Source of the DNA: Roseivirga sp.
GTDB taxonomy: Bacteria; Bacteroidota; Bacteroidia; Cytophagales; Cyclobacteriaceae
Direction of reading: 5' to 3'
DNA: 64,000 bases
Assembly: GCF_049099775.1 (NCBI RefSeq)
Contig: NZ_JAGDZM010000009.1
Coordinates: 74,643 to 138,642, forward strand
Below the pieces are notes generated by a model. That model did no database searches. It worked only from the letters and a program-made list of their open reading frames with translations, and was not told the DNA's origin. Positions 23,035 to 32,572 of the stretch are shown here, piece after piece (the first letter of the stretch is position 1; the number at the start of each line of letters is the position of its first letter). The position numbers were made by a program, and so were the translations under genes.

Positions 23035-24369
23035 TTACACCGAAACAAGATCTTTGGTTTTCACATTCCATTTATCAAAATCGAACTGTTGCATGGCTTG
23101 AGACATTTGCTCTTGTATTTCAGATAAATTCAATTGTCCTATACTTCCTTCATGGCTATGATTCACCTGCTTTTCAGGGTTAAAGTCATCGTTTTCAATG
23201 GCCAGGCCTATTTGCTTATATGCGTCTCGAAATGGCACGCCGTTTAGTACCAATTTGTTCGTTTCCTCAACGCTAAATAGGTATTTATACTTTTCCTTTT
23301 CGACCAGATCCGTACTGATTGCTACTTTTTGAAGCATGAAATCACACATAAATAAGCAGTCTTTCAAATCTTGAATCGCCGGAAAAAGTACCTCTTTAAT
23401 CAATTGCATCTCTCGGTGATACCCTACCGGTAAATTGGCTGTAACCAGAGCAATGTCATTAGGTAAAGCTTGTATTCGATTACACTTACCGCGCATTAGC
23501 TCAAAGACATCCGGGTTCTTCTTGTGCGGCATAATGCTAGAGCCTGTCGTGAGTTCATCTGGGAAGGAAAGAAACCCAAAATCTTGCCCCATATATAGGC
23601 ATACGTCCATAGCAAATTTGGCGAGCGAAGTCGCAATAGCAGCCATACCAGTTGCTAAAGATTTTTCAGCCTTGCCACGTCCCATCATGGCATAAACAAC
23701 ATTATAATTCAAATCGTCAAAACCGAGTAAATCAGTCGTCAATCGACGGTTTAAAGGAAATGATGAGCCGTATCCAGCCCCTGAACCAAGCGGGTTCTTA
23801 TTCACGATTTTATAAGCCGCATATAGCATATGTAAATCGTCGACCAAGCTTTCGGCGTAAGCACCAAACCATAAACCAAAGGATGAAGGCATAGCCACTT
23901 GCATATGAGTATAGCCTGGCATAAGGGCTTCCTTATGTTCATCGCTCAGTGAAATCAATCGATCGAAAAGGGTAGAAACGCCATCAGTTATCTCCTGAAT
24001 TTCTTGCCGCATAAAAAGCTTCAAGTCCACTAAAACTTGATCATTTCGAGATCGGCCACTGTGTATCTTCTTGCCAACATCGCCCAAACGATCGGTCAGT
24101 AAAAGCTCAATTTGAGAGTGTATATCTTCCACGCCTGCCTGAATCTCAAAATCGCCACTCATAATATCCCGATAGATAGCCTTCAATTCTTTATGAATAA
24201 GAACTTTCTCTTCTTTTTCCAGTAAATCGATAGAAGCCAACATTTCCGTATGAGCCAGCGAACCTAATACATCATATGGGGCCAATTGTATATCAAATTC
24301 TAAATCGCGACCAACCGTATAGCGTTCCACAATTTCAGATACGTTCGTTTCTTTTTGCCAGAGTTTCAT
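23035..24369 (-). CDS. argH: Argininosuccinate lyase
   Basis: HSGRSRNDQV, PGYTHMQ, GSSIMPHKKNPD. Confidence 0.97.
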   Translation of the reverse strand: MKLWQKETNVSEIVERYTVGRDLEFDIQLAPYDVLGSLAHTEMLASIDLLEKEEKVLIHKELKAIYRDIMSGDFEIQAGVEDIHSQIELLLTDRLGDVGKKIHSGRSRNDQVLVDLKLFMRQEIQEITDGVSTLFDRLISLSDEHKEALMPGYTHMQVAMPSSFGLWFGAYAESLVDDLHMLYAAYKIVNKNPLGSGAGYGSSFPLNRRLTTDLLGFDDLNYNVVYAMMGRGKAEKSLATGMAAIATSLAKFAMDVCLYMGQDFGFLSFPDELTTGSSIMPHKKNPDVFELMRGKCNRIQALPNDIALVTANLPVGYHREMQLIKEVLFPAIQDLKDCLFMCDFMLQKVAISTDLVEKEKYKYLFSVEETNKLVLNGVPFRDAYKQIGLAIENDDFNPEKQVNHSHEGSIGQLNLSEIQEQMSQAMQQFDFDKWNVKTKDLVSV

Positions 24370-24414
24370 AGTGCGTTTTAAGTAGTTTTTCTTCGATTTG
24401 GGATAATGGAAATG

Positions 24415-25476
24415 CTATAGCATTTTTTCAAGCAGCTGGATATAATCTTTAATGCCATTTTCAATTTCTGATATATAAATATACTCATCGGCAGCGTGTG
24501 ATCTTGCAGAATCGCCAGGACCCATTTTTAAAGATGGAAAGGGCATTAAAGCCTGATCGGAAAGTGTTGGCGACCCATAGGTTTCTTTGCCTAATTCAAG
24601 ACCTGCTTTCACAATTGGGTGATCTTTTGGTATACCTGATGGATTCAAACGGGTGGATCGAGCCGTTACTTGGCAGTTTACATGAGCCTGAATAATTTGA
24701 AGTGTTTCTTGATTGGAATGAGCATCGGTCGTTCGAACGTCCACCACAAATTTGCATTCATCAGGCACTACATTGTGTTGCTCACCTGCTTCAATCACGG
24801 TTACGCTCATTTTAATAGGCCCTAATGATTCGGACACTTTTTCAAATGCATAATTTTTAAACCAATGAATATCTTCCAACGCCTTATAAATGGCATTTTC
24901 ACCTTCATTTCTGGCGGCATGCCCTGATTTTCCCTTGGCCACACAGTCCAACACCATCAACCCCTTTTCAGCAATGGCCAAATTCATTTGTGTGGGTTCT
25001 CCAACTATCGCAAAATCAATCGCCGGTAAATGGGGCACAAGATTTTCCATTCCTCCTTTTCCTGAAATTTCTTCCTCGGCCGAAGCGGCCAATACCAAAT
25101 TGAAGGTTAAATTTTCTTGTGAATAAAAATGTAGAAAAGTGGCGATTAAAGACACCAAACATCCCCCAGCATCATTACTTCCTAAGCCATAGAGTTTTCC
25201 ATTGTCAGTTTTAGCATCAAACGGATCATTTGTGTAGCCGGCATTGGGTTTTACTGTATCATGATGCGAATTCAAAAGAATGGTTTGCTTTGCGGATTCG
25301 AAGTGTAAGTTCTTAGCCCAAACATTATTGCCAATTCGGCTCGTCTCTACTCCATTTCGTTGTAAGAATTGAGCAATTTCATTAGCCGTCACCTTTTCTT
25401 CCTTACTGAAGGAAGGTGTTTGTATCAGTTTCTTCAGCAATTCAATTGCATCGGATGTTAACGCCTCTATACTCAT
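24415..25476 (-). CDS. argE: M20 deacylase (ArgE-like; probably N-succinylcitrulline/acetylornithine deacylase)
   Basis: NSHHDTV, GLGSNDAGG, SAEEE, VGEPT, SHAADE; inside arg operon. Confidence 0.85.
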   Translation of the reverse strand: MSIEALTSDAIELLKKLIQTPSFSKEEKVTANEIAQFLQRNGVETSRIGNNVWAKNLHFESAKQTILLNSHHDTVKPNAGYTNDPFDAKTDNGKLYGLGSNDAGGCLVSLIATFLHFYSQENLTFNLVLAASAEEEISGKGGMENLVPHLPAIDFAIVGEPTQMNLAIAEKGLMVLDCVAKGKSGHAARNEGENAIYKALEDIHWFKNYAFEKVSESLGPIKMSVTVIEAGEQHNVVPDECKFVVDVRTTDAHSNQETLQIIQAHVNCQVTARSTRLNPSGIPKDHPIVKAGLELGKETYGSPTLSDQALMPFPSLKMGPGDSARSHAADEYIYISEIENGIKDYIQLLEKML

Positions 25477-26264
25477 TAACTTAGTGTAATTTTTGTGCCT
25501 GACTTTCCTTTTACTAACGTTTGAACAGATTGAAAAGAACCAATCTTTACAGTATCTACTCCACCTTTTATAGCATCGAAAGCATTATCCATTTTCGGGA
25601 TCATACCCGCCTGAATAACCCCCTCAGTTTTTAACTTATCGTACTGATCGTATGTTATTGTCGCTATAACTTTATTCTTCGCAAAATCTTCTAAGACACC
25701 ATCCTGTTCGAAACAGTAGATCAAGTTAACACGAAATTTTTCTGTCATGGCCGTTGCTAGTACACTCGCAATTGTATCAGCATTTGTATTGAGTAAGTTG
25801 CCATTGCCATCATGCGTAAGTGGGCACAAAACTGGAACCAAACCTGCATCGATAAAATTCGATATCATAGCAGTGTTAACGTCAGTTCTTGACACATCTC
25901 CCACATATCCATAATCTATCGCGCTTACTTGTCTTTTATTGGCCGAAATCACATTCGCATCGGCACCCGTTAAACCTATCGCATTTTCGCCTCTTTCTTG
26001 CAGTTGTGCTACAATATTCTTATTGACTAACCCACCATAAACCATGGTTACTAGCTCTAAAGTAGGTTTATCGGTAATTCTTCTTCCATTTATGAGTTGA
26101 GGCGTTATTCCTAATCGATTTCCAAAATCAGAGGCGATTTTTCCACCACCATGAACGAGTATTTTCGCACCGGAAACCTCCACAAACGAATCTAGAAAAC
26201 GCTTAAGTGCTTCCGGATCATCGATGACTTTTCCGCCAACTTTTATAACTGTTAATTCCTTCAT
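25476..26264 (-). CDS. argB: Acyl-glutamate kinase
   Basis: VIKVGG, VHGGGK, GRRITD, LNTNADT, GMIPK. Confidence 0.95.
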   Translation of the reverse strand: MKELTVIKVGGKVIDDPEALKRFLDSFVEVSGAKILVHGGGKIASDFGNRLGITPQLINGRRITDKPTLELVTMVYGGLVNKNIVAQLQERGENAIGLTGADANVISANKRQVSAIDYGYVGDVSRTDVNTAMISNFIDAGLVPVLCPLTHDGNGNLLNTNADTIASVLATAMTEKFRVNLIYCFEQDGVLEDFAKNKVIATITYDQYDKLKTEGVIQAGMIPKMDNAFDAIKGGVDTVKIGSFQSVQTLVKGKSGTKITLS

Positions 26265-27202
26265 TTCAACAACTCATTTAAAACAGACTGAGCAGCATAA
26301 ACCCGGTTTTCGGCTTGGTCCAAATGGATTGCATTAGCACTGTCGAGCACTTCATCCTTAATCACCAAGCCTCGTCTTACGGGCAAGCAATGCATTACTT
26401 TTGCATTGTTAGTAAGTGCCAACTGATCATTCCCAAAACTCCAACTTTCATCTTGAGAAAGCACTTGCCCATATGCCTCATAGGCCGACCAATTCTTAAC
26501 ATAGACAAAGTCAGCACCTGCAAGTCCAGCTGCTTGATCATGATAAACTGAAACTCCTTCACGGAACTCTGGGGCTAAATTGTAGCCTTCTGGATTTGTG
26601 ATTGAAAAATCTACGTCTGCATGCATCATCCATTCAGCGAATGAATTCGGCACTGCCTGGGGAAGCGCCTTTATATGCGGTGCCCAAGTCAAGACGACTT
26701 TTGGTTTCCGATCCTTTGTCCAATGTTCTTTGATCGTCATCAAATCGGCCAAACTTTGCAGGGGATGTCTCGTTCCGCTCTCTAAACTCAACACAGGAAT
26801 TCCTGCATGCTTTAAAAATGACTGTAGTAAGGTTTCTGAATAGTCGGTTGCTTTATCGGTGAGACTAGGAAATGTACGAACACCTAATACGTCAAAGTAT
26901 CGACCCATAACGGCAGCTGCTTCACGAATATGCTCTGCCTTGTCACCGTTCATGATTTTTCCATCTTCGAATTCCAAAGCCCATCCGTCTTTCCCGATGT
27001 CAAGTACAATGGCCTCTGCCCCTAAATTTTGTGCCGCCACTTGGGTACTTAATCTTGTTCTAAGGCTCGGATTCAGAAATACTAAGCCCACTTTCTTTCC
27101 TTTTCTCAATTCAGGTTGGAAAGCATTTGCCTTGAAGGAAATGGCTTGTTCAACTAATTGGTTGACATCATTAACATCCGCTATGCTGGTAAAATGCTTC
27201 AT
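26261..27202 (-). CDS. argF: N-succinyl/N-acetyl-ornithine transcarbamylase (ArgF')
   Basis: SLRTR rather than STRT, HPLQSLAD, LTWAPH, HCLPVRR. Confidence 0.9.
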   Translation of the reverse strand: MKHFTSIADVNDVNQLVEQAISFKANAFQPELRKGKKVGLVFLNPSLRTRLSTQVAAQNLGAEAIVLDIGKDGWALEFEDGKIMNGDKAEHIREAAAVMGRYFDVLGVRTFPSLTDKATDYSETLLQSFLKHAGIPVLSLESGTRHPLQSLADLMTIKEHWTKDRKPKVVLTWAPHIKALPQAVPNSFAEWMMHADVDFSITNPEGYNLAPEFREGVSVYHDQAAGLAGADFVYVKNWSAYEAYGQVLSQDESWSFGNDQLALTNNAKVMHCLPVRRGLVIKDEVLDSANAIHLDQAENRVYAAQSVLNELLK

Positions 27203-28320
27203 ATCTCTTTTTTCAATGCGTCGAAAAATTGATCAAGTTCTGACTGGCTCACAGCGAGAGAAGGCAATAAACGCAGCGTTTGTTTGTCTGCAGCGGCACC
27301 GGTAAAAATATGGTGATCGAATAAAAGCTTCTTTCTGAGTTCGGCAATCGGAAAATCAAATGCCGCACCGACCATTAGGCCTTTACCTCTGATTTCTTTC
27401 ACCCCAGAAATAGATTTCAATTGCTCTACTATATAGTCACCCATCACTGAAGCATTTTTCATTAAGGCTTCTTTTGAAAGTACGTCTAAAACGGCCAGCG
27501 ACGCAGCACAAGCCAAGTGGTTCCCTCCAAAAGTAGTCCCTAACATGCCATGCCATGGTTCTAATTTGGGATTAATGAGTACACTGGCTACGGGAAAACC
27601 ATTCCCCATTCCTTTGGCTAGGGTAATAATATCAGGACGGATATTCGAGTATTGGTGCGCAAAAAACTTTCCTGTACGTCCTGCACCGGATTGGACTTCA
27701 TCTACTATAAAAACAGCTTCAAATTTTTCACACAGATCCTGTGCCTTTTGAAGAAACTGATTAGTTGCCTCAAAGAGACCTGCAACTCCTTGAATCGGTT
27801 CTATAATAAAACCAGCTACCTCCTCATCGAAGGCCAATTCAAGGGCATCGCAATCATTCATCGGCACAAACTCTACCTGATGATCGGCATTAAAAGGCGC
27901 TACTATTTTGGGATTATGTGTAGCGGCAACTGCACCTGAAGTTCGTCCATGAAAGGCATTTTCAACTGCAATAATCTTTTTTCTACCCGTATGGAAAGAG
28001 GCAAGTTTTAAAGCGTTTTCGTTGGCTTCAGCGCCCGTACTACATAAGAACAGTTTGTAGTCATAGTAGCCAGAAATCTTCCCAAGCTTCAAGGCCAATT
28101 CTCCTTGCAGACTATTTTGAACCGCGTTAGAATAGAAACCAATTTTTGTGAGTTGGTCAGAAATATTCTTCACATAAGTAGGATGGCTATGCCCAATTGA
28201 AATAACAGCATGACCACCATAAAGGTCTAAATATTCAGTTCCTTTTTTATCCCATAGCTTTGATCCTAAGGCTTTTACAGGTTCAATAGGGTAAAGCGGA
28301 TATACGTCGAACATTTCCAT
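27199..28320 (-). CDS. argD: Acyl-ornithine aminotransferase
   Basis: YLDLYGG, FHGRT, EPIQG, DEVQSG, LAKGMGNG. Confidence 0.93.
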   Translation of the reverse strand: MEMFDVYPLYPIEPVKALGSKLWDKKGTEYLDLYGGHAVISIGHSHPTYVKNISDQLTKIGFYSNAVQNSLQGELALKLGKISGYYDYKLFLCSTGAEANENALKLASFHTGRKKIIAVENAFHGRTSGAVAATHNPKIVAPFNADHQVEFVPMNDCDALELAFDEEVAGFIIEPIQGVAGLFEATNQFLQKAQDLCEKFEAVFIVDEVQSGAGRTGKFFAHQYSNIRPDIITLAKGMGNGFPVASVLINPKLEPWHGMLGTTFGGNHLACAASLAVLDVLSKEALMKNASVMGDYIVEQLKSISGVKEIRGKGLMVGAAFDFPIAELRKKLLFDHHIFTGAAADKQTLRLLPSLAVSQSELDQFFDALKKEI

Positions 28321-29273
28321 TAGAAAGCCCCTCCTTTTAATTTTAGCCCAGTCGTTTCTTCAAGACCATGCATCAAGTTCATGTTTTGAACAGCTTGTCC
28401 AGAAGCACCCTTCAATAAATTATCGATTACGGTCTGTACCATTAAATAGCCATTATGCATGGTAATGTTGACGAAACACTTATTCGTGTTCACAACTTGT
28501 TTCACATCTACAGGTTGCTGACTTACGCTTACAAATGGGTGCTCTTGGTAATATTCTTTATATACCCTGATGGCTTCTTCTAAAGGCCATTCGCAATATT
28601 GATAGGCAGTTACGAGAATCCCTCGGGTGAAATTGCCTCGATATGGAATAAAGTTCAGCGGCTGATCGAACCAAGGTTGATATTGCATCAGGCTCCTTGT
28701 GACTTCTGCCATATGCTGATGATCGAATGCTTTATAGCTAGAAACATTGCTATCGCGCCAGCTAAAATGTGTTGTTTTAGAGGGCTGAAACCCTGCACCG
28801 GTCGATCCGGTAATTCCGGAAATATGAACTTCTTTTAACGCGCCGTTATGTGCCATTGGTAATAGGGCTAATTGAATTGCCGTAGCAAAACAACCTGGAT
28901 TGGCTACAAAATTAGCCGACCGGATGGCTTCTTTGTTTAATTCTGGTAGCCCATACACCTTTTCGGTGTCCATCCGAAAATCTTGACTCAAATCGATGAT
29001 TTTAACGTGCTCAGGTAGCGAATGCTGACTTATAAACTCCGAAGACGCACCATGCCCCATACATAAGAAAAGTACTTCCACATTAAAATTCATTTCATCG
29101 GTAAAGCCGATTTCTGTTTCGCCGAGAAGATCAGCGTGAACTGTATGAAGTGGTTCTCCCGCTTGGCTTCTACTTTGAACGAAAATTATTTCTGCTGATG
29201 GATGGTTTAGCAACAGACGAATCAGTTCGCCACCTGTATAACCCGCGCCACCAACTATTCCTACTTTAATCAT
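28320..29273 (-). CDS. argC: N-acyl-gamma-glutamyl-phosphate reductase
   Basis: GGAGYTG, NPGCF, DNLLKGASGQAVQN. Confidence 0.96.
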   Translation of the reverse strand: MIKVGIVGGAGYTGGELIRLLLNHPSAEIIFVQSRSQAGEPLHTVHADLLGETEIGFTDEMNFNVEVLFLCMGHGASSEFISQHSLPEHVKIIDLSQDFRMDTEKVYGLPELNKEAIRSANFVANPGCFATAIQLALLPMAHNGALKEVHISGITGSTGAGFQPSKTTHFSWRDSNVSSYKAFDHQHMAEVTRSLMQYQPWFDQPLNFIPYRGNFTRGILVTAYQYCEWPLEEAIRVYKEYYQEHPFVSVSQQPVDVKQVVNTNKCFVNITMHNGYLMVQTVIDNLLKGASGQAVQNMNLMHGLEETTGLKLKGGAF

Positions 29274-30466
29274 GATTCTGAGTTTACTTGGTGATAAATC
29301 GCATTTTGATTGCCAAAGATTTTTGCAAATCCCTTCACATCATCTCCAGACCAAGCCTTGTTCATTTCACCATAATGGCCAAACTTGGCAGACATTAAAT
29401 CATGATCAGATTCAATGCCATTGACTTGATATCGGTAGGGCAAGAGTGAAATAAAAACTTTACCCGTTACATGCTGCTGAGTATTTTCCATCATTGCTTC
29501 CATATCGCGCATTACCGGGTCCATAAACTGACCTTCGTGCAACCAATTGCCATAGAATGCAGCGATTTGATCCTTCCAATAAATCTGCCATTTGGTTAAA
29601 ACATGCTTTTCTAAGGCCTGATGAGCTTTAATAGTCAAAACAGCCGCTGCAGCTTCAAAACCTACGCGACCTTTTATTCCGATAATTGTATCACCAACAT
29701 GAATATCACGTCCAATGCCAAATGGACCTGCCAAGGCTTCTAAATATTGAATGGCCTCATGTGATTTCTCAAAAGGCTTATCATTAATAGACTTCAATTG
29801 TCCTTTTTTAAAGCCCAGTATTAATTCCTCCTGTTCTTCTTTTTTTACTTGTGTTGGGAAGGCACTTTCTGGTAAAAAGCCATTAGAAGTGAGCGTTTCT
29901 TTTCCTCCTACAGATGTTCCCCACAAACCTTTATTCACAGAATATGCTGCCTTTTCAAAATCCATCTCAACCCCTTTTTCCTTTAGGTATTCTATTTCCT
30001 CTTCTCTCGACAATTGTAAATCGCGAATTGGTGTAATGATTTCTGCCTCTGGAAGGAAGCTCTGGAAAATCATATCGAAACGCACTTGATCGTTTCCAGC
30101 ACCTGTGCTTCCATGTGCGATGTAATCTGCATTAAGTCCTTTAGCGTGTTTCGCTATGGCAATCGCTTGGCTTACTCTTTCAGCACTTACCGAAAGCGGA
30201 TAGGTACTGTTTTTTAAGATATTCCCATAAACCAGGTACTTTACTACACTTTGATAGTAGTTCTCGGTTTCTTCGATCGTTGTATGGGTTTTTACACCCA
30301 ATTCGTAGGCTCTTTTCTCCACCTCAACGAGTTCTTCACTTGTAAAACCACCTGTATTTACCAATACAGAATGTACATCTAAACCTTTCTCGTCTTTAAG
30401 ATATTTGACGCAGTAAGATGTATCTAGTCCGCCACTATATGCTAATACAACTTTCTTATTTTCCAT
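29270..30466 (-). CDS. argG: Argininosuccinate synthase
   Basis: AYSGGLDTS, HGSTGAGNDQVRF, GRVGFEA. Confidence 0.97.
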   Translation of the reverse strand: MENKKVVLAYSGGLDTSYCVKYLKDEKGLDVHSVLVNTGGFTSEELVEVEKRAYELGVKTHTTIEETENYYQSVVKYLVYGNILKNSTYPLSVSAERVSQAIAIAKHAKGLNADYIAHGSTGAGNDQVRFDMIFQSFLPEAEIITPIRDLQLSREEEIEYLKEKGVEMDFEKAAYSVNKGLWGTSVGGKETLTSNGFLPESAFPTQVKKEEQEELILGFKKGQLKSINDKPFEKSHEAIQYLEALAGPFGIGRDIHVGDTIIGIKGRVGFEAAAAVLTIKAHQALEKHVLTKWQIYWKDQIAAFYGNWLHEGQFMDPVMRDMEAMMENTQQHVTGKVFISLLPYRYQVNGIESDHDLMSAKFGHYGEMNKAWSGDDVKGFAKIFGNQNAIYHQVNSES

Positions 30467-31133
30467 TTTTATTCTTTTTAGCTTCTCGTTTGAGTAAGAC
30501 TGTTTTCTTAAATTTTAACCAGCGTTCGAAGAGTTTTAAGTCCTTATCGAGTTCTCTTCCTTTCCATTGCGTCCGTTTCGGTTTTTGATCTTTTTCCCAA
30601 GCTGGATTATACAGCATTGCTGTACAGATACAGTTTTGCCTTTTCTTAGCCGTAAGAATATCAAAGTTGATACAGCTTTGGCAACCTTTCCAAAATTCTT
30701 CGTCCTGGGTGAGCTCACCGTAGACAACTGGTTTATAGCCCAGTTCCGAATTAATCTTAAGCACCGCAGCACCCGTTGTTAAACCAAAGATTTTAGCCTC
30801 GGGGTACTTTTCGCCAGACAGATTAAATGTTGCCTCTTTAATTTTTTTGGCTAGCCCTTCTCCTCTGAATTTTTGGGATACGATTAGGCCTGAATTGGCA
30901 ACGAATTGACCGTGGCTCCAAACTTCGATGTAACAGAAACCTGCCCATTCGCCACTTTTCGTAGTCGCTATAATAGCCTTACCTTCCTCGATCTTCTTAG
31001 ATACATATTCAGGCGTTCGTTTCGCGATGCCCGTACCACGAACTTTGGCTGAATCAGCGATCTCTTGTACGATCTCTTGGGCATAGTTCACGTCGGAAGA
31101 ATCAGCAGCTCTTATGATAAAATTCTTTTTCAT
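30456..31133 (-). CDS. GNAT N-acyltransferase, first gene of arg operon (ArgA-like acyl-glutamate synthase)
   Basis: GFCYIE, NSGLIV, FRGEGLAK; Cys-rich tail CQSC...CICT; position in operon. Confidence 0.8.
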   Translation of the reverse strand: MKKNFIIRAADSSDVNYAQEIVQEIADSAKVRGTGIAKRTPEYVSKKIEEGKAIIATTKSGEWAGFCYIEVWSHGQFVANSGLIVSQKFRGEGLAKKIKEATFNLSGEKYPEAKIFGLTTGAAVLKINSELGYKPVVYGELTQDEEFWKGCQSCINFDILTAKKRQNCICTAMLYNPAWEKDQKPKRTQWKGRELDKDLKLFERWLKFKKTVLLKREAKKNKNGK

Positions 31134-31268
31134 TTTTATAAAAACCTCTCAACGCGACAATTAGAGAAACCAGTTTGACGCATCGAATGATGAGTTTGAG
31201 ATAATTGAAATAAATACAGTTTGAGGAATTGATGACCACCACATAGGCAGTCGGTATGATATCGAGGC

Positions 31269-31364
31269 TTAGCGCCTCCTATTCCTTACCCTTAATGCAA
31301 CAGCTTCCATGGCTACTTGAGGTAGCTGAATGGTTTGGAAATATGTAGAAGCGTTTGTTTGCAT
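31269..31364 (-). CDS. Putative arginine leader peptide (31 aa, MQTNASTYFQTIQLPQVAMEAVALRVRNRRR)
   Basis: Open frame from ATG 31364 to TAA 31269; 5 of the last 7 codons are Arg, none earlier; 135 nt upstream of the first arg gene, same strand. Confidence 0.75.
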   Translation of the reverse strand: MQTNASTYFQTIQLPQVAMEAVALRVRNRRR

Positions 31365-31525
31365 TTCTTTATTGAGATAACAAAGGAAGCGAAAAGTTTA
31401 GAAATGGCAAGATGATGCTAAATAATTAATCAAATAATATCTAATTTAACGATGATAAATTTGAACTATTACTATATTTAATAAACAGTGGCCCATTTGT
31501 CAACCCTCCTTAAAGAATAAACACT

Positions 31526-32506
31526 ATGAATAAAATACTTTCTATAATTACGCTGATTTGTGTATCTCAATTAACATTTGGACAAAATACATTTCCAACA
31601 ACCGGTAGTGTCGGTATTGGCACTACTTCGCCTGAAGCTAGATTACATGTTTCCGGTGGAAGTATACAGGTTGGAAACTATACACAGAATGGAATGGTTT
31701 ACCTCGGTGGGGGTAAAGCATACGCAGGAATTGGTTCAACAAGATCGGATGGAGGCCTCATTTTGGGCAAAAACATATATGCTCGATACGATAACGCTAC
31801 TTACAACTATAAGGCTCTGGTAGGCTCTACAAGCTCAAGAGGGTTCTCAGGTCTCAAATTTGGCTTAGATGGGAAAATTGACTTATTCAGTGCAAACGGT
31901 AGCGTTACTGAGGATGAGGTAGCAAATTCGGATCAAAACATAAGAATGAGTATCAATTCTCAAGGCAATGTCGGGATTGGCACTGCTTCACCTGGAACAA
32001 CTTTGGATATAAATAATGGAACTCTAAGGTTGAAAGGAAGTTCCGCGCTTGGTCAAGAAGCTGCAAGGTTCGTCGTAGATACTGGTGCATCTAGTGGTCA
32101 TACACTAATGATCTTAAGAAATACATCTAATGGTGAAATTCTAAGAGTTAATGGCGGTGGTTCAATGATTCTGAATGGAGACTTGGAATCCAAGAAAGTA
32201 AAAGTCACTCAAACCCCTGGTAACTGGCCAGACTATGTCTTCTCTCCAAACTATAAGCTCAAATCCCTCCATGAATTAGAAGCTTACATTCAATCCAACC
32301 AACATTTACCTGAAGTACCAACTGCCAAAGAGGTTGAAAAAAAAGGACAAGATTTGGGAGATATTCAGGCAACGCTTTTAAAGAAAGTAGAGGAGTTGAC
32401 GCTATACATGATAGAACAAAATAAAAAGACCAGTGCTCAAGAAGAGCGAATCAAGGCCTTAGAAAAGGAGAACCAGATTTTAAAAAAGCTGATTCAAAAG
32501 AAGTAG
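31526..32506 (+). CDS. Secreted tail-fibre-like protein with C-terminal coiled coil / chaperone-like domain
   Basis: Signal peptide; G(S/N)VGIGT(T/A)SP twice; WPDYVF...HLPEVP...[14 protein letters not shown]. Confidence 0.65.
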
Positions 32507-32511
32507 GTATG

Positions 32512-32536
32512 AAAGCCTGTCTCAGGGACAGGCTTT
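32512..32536. terminator. Bidirectional terminator
   Basis: AAAGCCTGTC/GACAGGCTTT between convergent genes. Confidence 0.8.
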
Positions 32537-32572
32537 ATTATCTAGAATAGTCTATAGTATGAGCTATTTTAA

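Follow-up and report, generated by a model that had tools for sequence, protein, structure and literature searches.

The biosynthesis of arginine is the textbook case of control by the repressor ArgR. Textbook attenuation by leader peptides concerns tryptophan, histidine, leucine, threonine, isoleucine/valine and phenylalanine, and arginine is not among them. In fungi, the arginine attenuator peptide, encoded by an upstream open reading frame (uORF) of arg-2/CPA1, confers arginine-specific control on an arginine-biosynthesis gene. This eukaryotic system responds to free arginine through the nascent peptide, stalls the ribosome at the stop codon and is independent of Arg codons. Here we describe a short open reading frame (ORF) with a tail of Arg codons, which lies upstream of the arginine (arg) operon in a stretch of 64,000 nucleotides (nt) of Roseivirga sp. 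(contig NZ_JAGDZM010000009.1, positions 74,643 to 138,642), termed the window. An earlier reading of the letters of the window (the sequence-only reading) had proposed an arginine attenuator at this place. The comparison of orthologous sequences indicates that the ORF is genuine, occurs widely and is translated into a leader peptide of the arg operon of Bacteroidota, and it is likely that it senses arginine.

The classical attenuators (trpL, hisL, leuL, thrL, ilvL and pheL, and Bacteroid-trp in Rfam) resemble the arg leader in three respects: the 5' leader contains a short ORF that is translated, the end of this ORF is rich in codons for the amino acid made by the operon, and a structure starts where the ORF ends. 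The arg leader differs from them in the amino acid, in the lack of a match to any Rfam model and in that a conserved terminator with a mutually exclusive antiterminator was not found. Repression by ArgR/AhrC has the same physiological target, but uses a protein repressor and a DNA operator.

Leaders that read Arg codons have been described for other functions. In Salmonella orf34/SpeFL (Ben-Zvi et al. 2019, PMC6386406), consecutive Arg codons of the uORF likewise make the speed of the ribosome a report on arginine. The pausing at these codons acts via Rho, sequestration of the ribosome-binding site and RNase G, and not by way of a simple terminator and antiterminator (PMC6386406). This system differs in that it controls an ornithine decarboxylase in Enterobacteria and in that the peptide also senses ornithine (PMC6386406), and there is no sequence or structural similarity to the arg leader. 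In rbfL of Staphylococcus aureus (Kohl et al. 2026, PMC13009471), rare AGG/AGA codons of the leader also sense arginine limitation by pausing. There, the uORF overlaps the ribosome-binding site of rbf and represses translation at low arginine (PMC13009471), whereas the arg leader stops 135 nt upstream of its operon and the expected sign is the opposite, an induction at low arginine. The survey of Naville and Gautheret does not mention arginine (PMC2965389). The transcriptome of Flavobacterium psychrophilum lists only ilvE, hisG, aromatic and trp leaders, and the predicted hisG leader ends in a strong stem of 9-10 bp (PMC9723704).

In full-text searches of the literature, no Arg leader of arginine-biosynthesis genes came up. 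In Rfam 15, no relevant match was obtained at E <= 10, and near the element only mgtC_leader appeared, with 15.9 bits against a gathering score of 48. Eight representative leader peptides had no match in Pfam-A or NCBIfam 20 at E <= 10. Seven of eight leader peptides were absent from a collection of 15 billion proteins, and the eighth was present there without a name. The sequence-only reading had known of no bacterial attenuator of such a form for arginine biosynthesis, and the searches of the literature, Rfam, Pfam and NCBIfam, all empty, agree with it. An Arg-codon leader of an arg operon was apparently undescribed before.

A conserved leader ORF co-transcribed with the arg operon

The leader, its putative promoter and the operon are located as follows.

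31381 to 31410, minus strand: putative Bacteroidota-type promoter, with TTG at 31410-31408, a 19-nt spacer and the -7-like box TTCCTTTG at 31388-31381
31269 to 31364, minus strand: leader ORF of 31 residues and a stop codon (ATG at 31364, TAA at 31271-31269), encoding MQTNASTYFQTIQLPQVAMEAVALRVRNRRR, with Arg-tailed orthologues
31272 to 31292, minus strand: cluster of Arg codons, AGG, (GTA), AGG, (AAT), AGG, AGG, CGC, the proposed sensing site
23035 to 31133, minus strand: operon under the proposed control, GNAT-argG-argC-argD-argF'-argB-argE-argH, with overlapping or abutting ends

The minus strand and the ORF list of the window were read directly, and the ORF, its content of Arg codons and its position were found as the sequence-only reading had given them. 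Five of the last seven codons encode Arg (AGG at 31292-31290, 31286-31284, 31280-31278 and 31277-31275, and CGC at 31274-31272) and none of the first 24. With Arg at 4.0% of the codons in the long ORFs of the window, the binomial probability of at least five in seven is 2e-6. Among the 573 ATG-initiated ORFs of at least 15 residues in the six frames of the window, the leader was the sole one whose last seven residues include more than three Arg. The window uses AGG as a minor codon, with 11% of the Arg codons of the long ORFs compared to 40% for AGA. The distance of 135 nt from the stop codon (31269) to the ATG of GNAT (31133), the first gene of the eight-gene operon, was also confirmed. A shorter version of 13 residues from the internal ATG at 31310, which had been considered as well, was not conserved. 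This codon is GTG in four of five aligned close relatives, and the first ATG and the N-terminal NASTY motif are retained; therefore, the 31-residue form is the conserved one.

The conservation was followed in loci that were fetched with a protein profile of GNAT, 80 from species-representative genomes, 80 from metagenomes and three from additional close relatives. ATG-initiated ORFs that end 40-350 nt upstream of GNAT had at least three Arg in their last ten residues in 31 of the 80 genome loci. The opposite strand gave 3 of 80, and the shuffles 3.6%. When the frames were read from stop to stop, an Arg-rich C-terminus was present in almost every locus, ending about 90-145 nt upstream of GNAT or, at loci with an inserted palindrome, as far as about 190 nt away. 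Such frames, whose lack at orthologous loci would have spoken against an attenuator according to the sequence-only reading, thus occur nearly everywhere, and the proposal was not refuted. A few loci are without a leader, e.g. L048. The carriers include Roseivirga, Algoriphagus, Pedobacter, Chitinophaga, Sediminibacterium and others and belong to three orders. Their tails read ...RxRxRRR, ...RIRQDRR and ...TPKFFRR in Roseivirga, ...SPLRRxxFFFRV in Algoriphagus and its relatives, ...RRPRPTRFVRI and ...FRRQIRI in other Cyclobacteriaceae and Roseivirgaceae, ...TSRQNFTPRI in Pedobacter, ...FRYLSRRPRI in Chitinophaga and ...PRPRRGC in other Chitinophagaceae. Judged by these alignments, the Arg codons are the single feature common to the leaders of all lineages. 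In the close relatives of the window, the whole design of the leader is retained (MQAAASTYYPTLALSQVAMEAIVLRARNRRR in R. misakiensis, MQSNASTYSQTIKLPLVAVEAVAFRARTRRR and MTTNASTYFQFIQLPQVAVEAIALRARTIRR). The frames of the Chitinophaga type have no ATG and contain a conserved in-frame UUG in the context AAGUUGGAA.

The codon positions carry a signature of translation. In 54 distinct leaders of the Pedobacter type, aligned at the stop codon, the entropy over the last 19 codons was 0.37, 0.37 and 1.08 at the codon positions 1, 2 and 3, respectively. The penultimate Arg is encoded by CGT, CGG, AGG or CGC, the Pro at -3 by all four of its codons and the Thr at -4 by three. In the Chitinophaga type, the Arg before the final Ile is CGT, CGC, AGA or AGG, and a CGA-CGA pair just upstream is invariant. 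Because of these synonymous exchanges and the about three-fold excess of variation at the third position, we conclude that the leader is translated and that its residues are under selection. The leaders of the window and of L085 differ by three synonymous and eight non-synonymous changes. The peptide is free to vary within Roseivirga and therefore fits a leader that is constrained at its regulatory codons alone.

The position and the choice of the Arg codons were then analysed over the families. In the family-balanced profile, where the enrichment of Arg is partly circular as the frames were chosen by their Arg count, the frequency of Arg was 0.83 at position -2 and 0.33-0.47 at -4, -5 and -8, with a peak also around -8/-9, and fell to about 0-0.05 beyond -11. 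The same partial circularity applies to the enrichment of Arg in the comparison of the tails with GNAT, and it does not touch the opposite-strand and shuffle controls, the absence of Lys or the codon bias. Lys was close to 0 across the last 20 residues of the leader, compared to 10% in the adjacent GNAT protein, and Pro was enriched 3.3-fold in the tails. As a share of the Arg codons, CGA made up 27% in the tails versus 10% in the adjacent GNAT gene, and AGG 25% versus 11%, with AGA, CGT and CGC being under-used in the tails.

The transcription of the leader was followed in RNA contigs, which come from relatives and not from the organism of the window itself. The promoter that the sequence-only reading had claimed (TTG-N19-TTCCTTTG) is present in the sequence. 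The TTCCTTTG box is kept in the Roseivirga relatives. In relatives with RNA contigs, these start a short distance past the equivalent box, with their 5' ends 12-41 nt upstream of the leader ATG, and reach GNAT. In Pedobacter miscanthi (L025; leader ATG at 2267, stop at 2399-2401, GNAT ATG at 2487), where a CCTTTG box ends at 2228, five of the seven RNA or metatranscriptome runs yielded contigs whose starts lie at 2241-2255 and which cross the leader and the spacer into GNAT. In a Roseivirga-like locus (L081; GNAT 88% identical, leader ATG at 914), contigs from two marine metatranscriptomes start at 873 and 893 and extend through the operon, one of them without coverage over the 200 nt upstream.

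Some variants of the leader start were observed. In L002, L003 and L004 the conserved TTCCTTTG box is only about 10 nt away from the leader ATG, compared to 16 nt in the window, and the leader mRNA of these Roseivirga species would therefore be nearly leaderless. The UUG of the Chitinophaga type has a context, GAACUGAAGUUGGAAAA, that matches the one of the GNAT UUG start of these loci (AAGUUGGAAAAU). It is located about 115-120 nt upstream of the leader stop in L015, L026, L027, L037, L041, L049, L051 and L063, and a perfect -7 box, TAACTTTG, is found about 55 nt upstream of it. In L132 (1066-1194), a GTG-started ORF of 42 residues ending in ...FIRTRNNSPAYIRFSNLNFRR has its stop 3 nt before the predicted GNAT start, which may be either a form of the leader that is coupled to GNAT by translation or the result of a wrongly placed GNAT start.

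Hairpins at the stop codon and the spacer before GNAT

Downstream of the Arg codons, the following elements were identified.

31264 to 31278, minus strand: hairpin H1, GAGGC-GCUAA-GCCUC, whose 5' arm consists of the last Arg codons and whose loop contains the stop codon
31234 to 31252, minus strand: hairpin H2, GACUGCC-UAUGU-GGUGGUC, with conserved loop and closing pairs CC-UAYGY-GG
31193 to 31233, minus strand: pyrimidine-rich, G-poor spacer, with 10 C and 1 G in the best 40 nt, a possible zone of Rho loading or termination
31140 to 31192, minus strand: hairpin H3 with UUUUU, an imperfect 50-nt hairpin (31192-31143) and U5 (31144-31140), terminator-like and ending 9 nt before the GNAT ATG

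H1 had already been recognised in the sequence-only reading and folds as described, with -7.8 kcal/mol. H1 and H2 recur in about 20 Cytophagales loci. In these loci, the 5' arm of H1 includes the last AGG Arg codon, the stop codon falls in the loop or in an arm, and the 3' arm follows directly after the stop. The nucleotides AGGCGCTAR, which form the 5' arm of H1, are invariant in Roseivirga. H2 begins 16-17 nt past the stop in the Cytophagales loci and has a 7-bp stem with CC/GG closing the UAYGY loop. In an alignment of 17 sequences, 99% of the cells of H2 were paired and six of its seven pairs were changed on both sides; for H1, 82% of the cells were paired and three of five pairs were changed on both sides. 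The covariation score of the whole H1 and H2 structure was matched by none of 500 shuffles, and shifting the partners by 1-3 columns dropped the pairing to about 45%. Both hairpins can be regarded as established.

The hairpins of Pedobacter and Chitinophagales differ in kind, and the stop codon is again found within a stem. In the stop-codon stem GGAUUUGAGU/ACUCAAACCC the change of UGA to UAA is compensated by a change of C to U, and a further example from Pedobacter/Chitinophagales is CUGAUAGG/CCUAUCAG. Over 94 non-redundant loci, the mean z of folding was -1.9 for the 70 nt from -18 to +52 of the stop, -0.7 inside the leader and -0.2 far upstream, and the last two codons with the stop had a mean pairing probability of 0.66. 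The RNAalifold consensus of 26 sequences of the Pedobacter type was limited to a trivial 6-bp helix, since their variable hairpins do not align properly.

Other roles of H2 were considered and dropped. A second uORF from the AUG in the H2 loop (MWWSSIPQ...) was rejected, as this AUG reads ACG in many relatives. In the window the AUG opens an ORF of 27 residues (31161-31244, minus strand; MWWSSIPQTVFISIISNSSFDASNWFL), whose start and first eight residues are shared by the closest relatives only, and this ORF is probably a by-product of the conserved hairpin. A kissing contact of the H2 loop to a conserved CAUAU in the 5' part of the leader and a pairing of the Arg codons with the 5' arm of H2 were both inspected by eye and showed no consistent covariation.

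Between the window, R. misakiensis and the other close relatives, the promoter, the leader, H1, H2 and the first 30 nt or so of the spacer beyond H2 are conserved within Roseivirga. The remaining 70-110 nt up to GNAT share no sequence relationship, not even in the pair of the window and R. misakiensis. The spacers had a C/G ratio of 1.52, compared to 1.05 in upstream intergenic DNA; this is a matter of composition only, compatible with Rho loading and no proof of it. H3 of the window has a predicted energy of about -15.6 to -15.9 kcal/mol, and in 80 dinucleotide shuffles of the spacer no hairpin with a U-tract was as strong. Owing to its long, imperfect stem, H3 is overlooked by a simple terminator scan, and it was detected when longer stems were allowed. 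At the position of H3, the loci L161, L162, L163, L081 and L085 have a weak terminator-like hairpin or none.

In several Roseivirga relatives, a long REP-like palindrome (GTCATTGCGAG...CTCGCAATGAC) is present between the conserved leader core and the GNAT start (L081 at 1085-1190, L085, L086, L162 and L163). A CCC[CA]A motif after the hairpins was not significantly enriched (37% versus 27% expected) and was dropped. In Pedobacter, a non-coding block, CCAATTAAYMAGAAYAYTTA...TTTTTTCGTTA, just upstream of the GNAT start is conserved in its nucleotides (L025:2440-2500; alignment columns 95-150). The GNAT AUG is there located in the loop of a UCGUUA/UAACGA helix with the codons 3-5 as the 3' arm, and metatranscriptome contigs break around this block. 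It was rejected as an ARG box, since the spacing is unsuited and it partly overlaps with the coding sequence.

Proposed arginine sensing and the competing explanations

We think it reasonably probable that the leader senses the supply of arginyl-tRNA through the stalling of ribosomes. Transcription would begin between a few nt and a few tens of nt ahead of the leader ATG, and the leader, the operon and the spacer of about 135 nt between them would share a single RNA. With abundant Arg-tRNA, ribosomes would pass the terminal Arg codons and be released at the stop codon. H1 would then form by the pairing of the last Arg codons with the sequence just past the stop, and most of the transcripts would be lost before GNAT is expressed. 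In the window, this loss would occur at the terminator-like element of H3 and U5, and in relatives without such a hairpin probably in the pyrimidine-rich spacer, where Rho would terminate transcription or the RNA would be processed. With Arg-tRNA in short supply, the ribosomes would stall at the minor Arg codons that lie 0-9 codons ahead of the stop, and a stalled ribosome staying at the end of the leader would keep H1 open and allow more transcripts to enter the operon.

A number of observations weigh against this reading. H3 is not conserved in R. misakiensis, despite a GNAT that is 96% identical, nor in other close relatives. Canonical terminators were only weakly enriched in the spacers, with 19% versus 10% in shuffles at <= -6 kcal/mol, and with longer stems allowed 42% of the spacers and 29% of the shuffles contained one. 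Ribosome footprints were modelled by folding, which gives equilibrium predictions only: a footprint on each Arg codon or on the stop left H2 and H3 of the window unchanged in constrained folding, and a stalled ribosome had no effect on the accessibility of the GNAT start in partition functions of 103 loci (Wilcoxon p = 0.87 and 0.33). For the Rho model, we found no reason why a ribosome stalled at the end of the leader should protect a spacer that stays naked. In two soil metatranscriptomes the contig of leader and spacer (L025 2255-2496) was 1.5-1.8 times deeper than the operon contig, which fits a partial loss of transcripts before GNAT; this ratio derives from contig depths, a weak and poor measure. 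ArgR may be encoded elsewhere in the genome, as the tblastn search for it covered the window and the flanks of 160 loci only. Finally, the response of the leader to arginine, its direction and the step at which it would take effect are all inferred.

A classic terminator/antiterminator switch is unsupported, since no antiterminator was predicted and the distal spacer is hypervariable with REP-like insertions. The leader resembles the sensing half of a classic attenuator and fails its terminator/antiterminator half. Because H3 is unconserved and no refolding was predicted, we adopt only the sensing half of the classic model. What stands of the arginine attenuator that had been proposed is a conserved, translated Arg-codon leader of the arg operon; what lacks support is the classic anatomy, as H3 is unconserved and no switch was predicted.

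The leader may further be considered as a new class that is not of the trp type. In this proposal, which we regard as possible but rather doubtful, the ribosome would pause on the terminal Arg codons, the output would be non-canonical and run via H1 and H2, and the leader would take over from ArgR the main role in sensing arginine in Cytophagales, Sphingobacteriales and Chitinophagales. Candidate outputs would be Rho loading, the access of an RNase or a peptide-assisted arrest that also reads free arginine. No ArgR homologue was detected when ArgR of E. coli and AhrC of B. subtilis were compared by tblastn to the window and the flanks of 160 loci, in line with the earlier remark that argR is absent from this cluster. 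The arg cluster of Bacteroides presumably starts with argR.

The conserved tail could instead belong to a sensor that works by arrest of the nascent peptide, as do SpeFL, TnaC and the arginine attenuator peptide of fungi. The peptide in the tunnel and free arginine would then stall the ribosome at or near the stop, and this arrest, in place of the charging of tRNA, would determine how strongly the operon is expressed. The last 19 or so residues of the Pedobacter leaders are indeed conserved as amino acids with third positions near saturation, including the non-Arg residues Q-7, T-4, P-3 and I-1, the tails are rich in Pro (3.3-fold), the stop codon is always within a structure and no RNA switch was predicted. 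Across the families, however, only Arg is common to the tails (RIRQDRR, FFFRV, TPRI, RRPRI, RRGC, RFVRI), the last residue varies between R, I, V, A, C, F and M, and the Roseivirga peptide evolves freely except at the Arg positions. The bias to minor Arg codons and the invariant CGA-CGN pair are instead expected for a sensing that is limited by decoding, and we consider an arrest peptide unlikely. The Arg tail could also be a by-product of purine-rich codons (AGG, CGA) that the stem of H1 requires, with a translated leader that does not sense arginine and serves as a constitutive protection from Rho or nucleases or as an aid for the loading of ribosomes. The invariant AGGCGCTAR of Roseivirga, being the 5' arm of H1, would suit this idea, and in Salmonella speF the translation of the uORF itself blocks Rho (PMC6386406). 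But the sequences of the H1 stem vary between the families while Arg persists, Arg codons of the CGN and AGR boxes substitute for each other, an additional Arg cluster is located 4-9 codons upstream of H1, and the element is tied specifically to the arg operon in every lineage examined, which makes a leader without arginine sensing a rather improbable explanation.

H2 raises the question whether an RNA element of H1, H2 and the CC-UAYGY-GG loop, bound by a protein or a ligand, is the functional unit and the ORF is secondary. H2 covaries strongly, has a conserved loop and keeps a fixed spacing from the stop, and a ribosome at the stop codon is too far away to reach it, so that its role is unexplained by a leader model. 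This form of H2 is confined to the loci of the Cytophagales type, the second hairpins of Pedobacter and Chitinophagales being different, whereas the coding signature and the Arg tail are universal; a match in Rfam is also absent, and we assign only a small chance to this explanation. A chance ORF in intergenic DNA would be short, unannotated and without a database family, as the leader is. It is effectively refuted by the comparative data, with a conservation over three orders, a coding signature and a unique outlier in the window, and its probability is negligible.

If the sensing of arginyl-tRNA by the leader is true, arginine would join the repertoire of attenuation across three large orders of Bacteroidota, and the control of arginine synthesis would be accounted for where argR is not linked to the operon. 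For annotators, the leader would be a new small gene and a cis-regulatory RNA, which at present has no model in Rfam, Pfam or NCBIfam and whose peptides are not called. Bacteroidota do not use Shine-Dalgarno sequences, and a leader without an obvious terminator or antiterminator in such a phylum is a good entry to the coupling of translation and transcription in Bacteroidota.

The operon genes and the divergent neighbour

The genes of the operon are arranged in the following order.

30456 to 31133, minus strand: GNAT
29270 to 30466, minus strand: argG
28320 to 29273, minus strand: argC
27199 to 28320, minus strand: argD
26261 to 27202, minus strand: argF', N-acyl-ornithine carbamoyltransferase
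25476 to 26264, minus strand: argB
24415 to 25476, minus strand: argE
23035 to 24369, minus strand: argH

The GNAT protein has 225 residues and is 96% identical to the GNAT of Roseivirga misakiensis. It gave only sub-threshold matches to curated families. In the GNAT protein alignment, a C-terminal cluster of Cys residues (C151, C154, C168 and C170 in WKGCQSC...NCxCTAM) was invariant. Presumably, this protein acts as the glutamate N-acyltransferase in the pathway of Bacteroidota and carries an uncharacterised extension rich in Cys.

On the plus strand, a divergent ORF of 326 residues (31526-32506) has a signal-peptide-like N-terminus and no match in Pfam. It is followed by a strong terminator hairpin (32476-32539, plus strand; AAAGCCUGUCUCAGGGACAGGCUUU and a U-rich tail), from which the sub-threshold Rfam matches to AbsR25 and OrzO-P arise.

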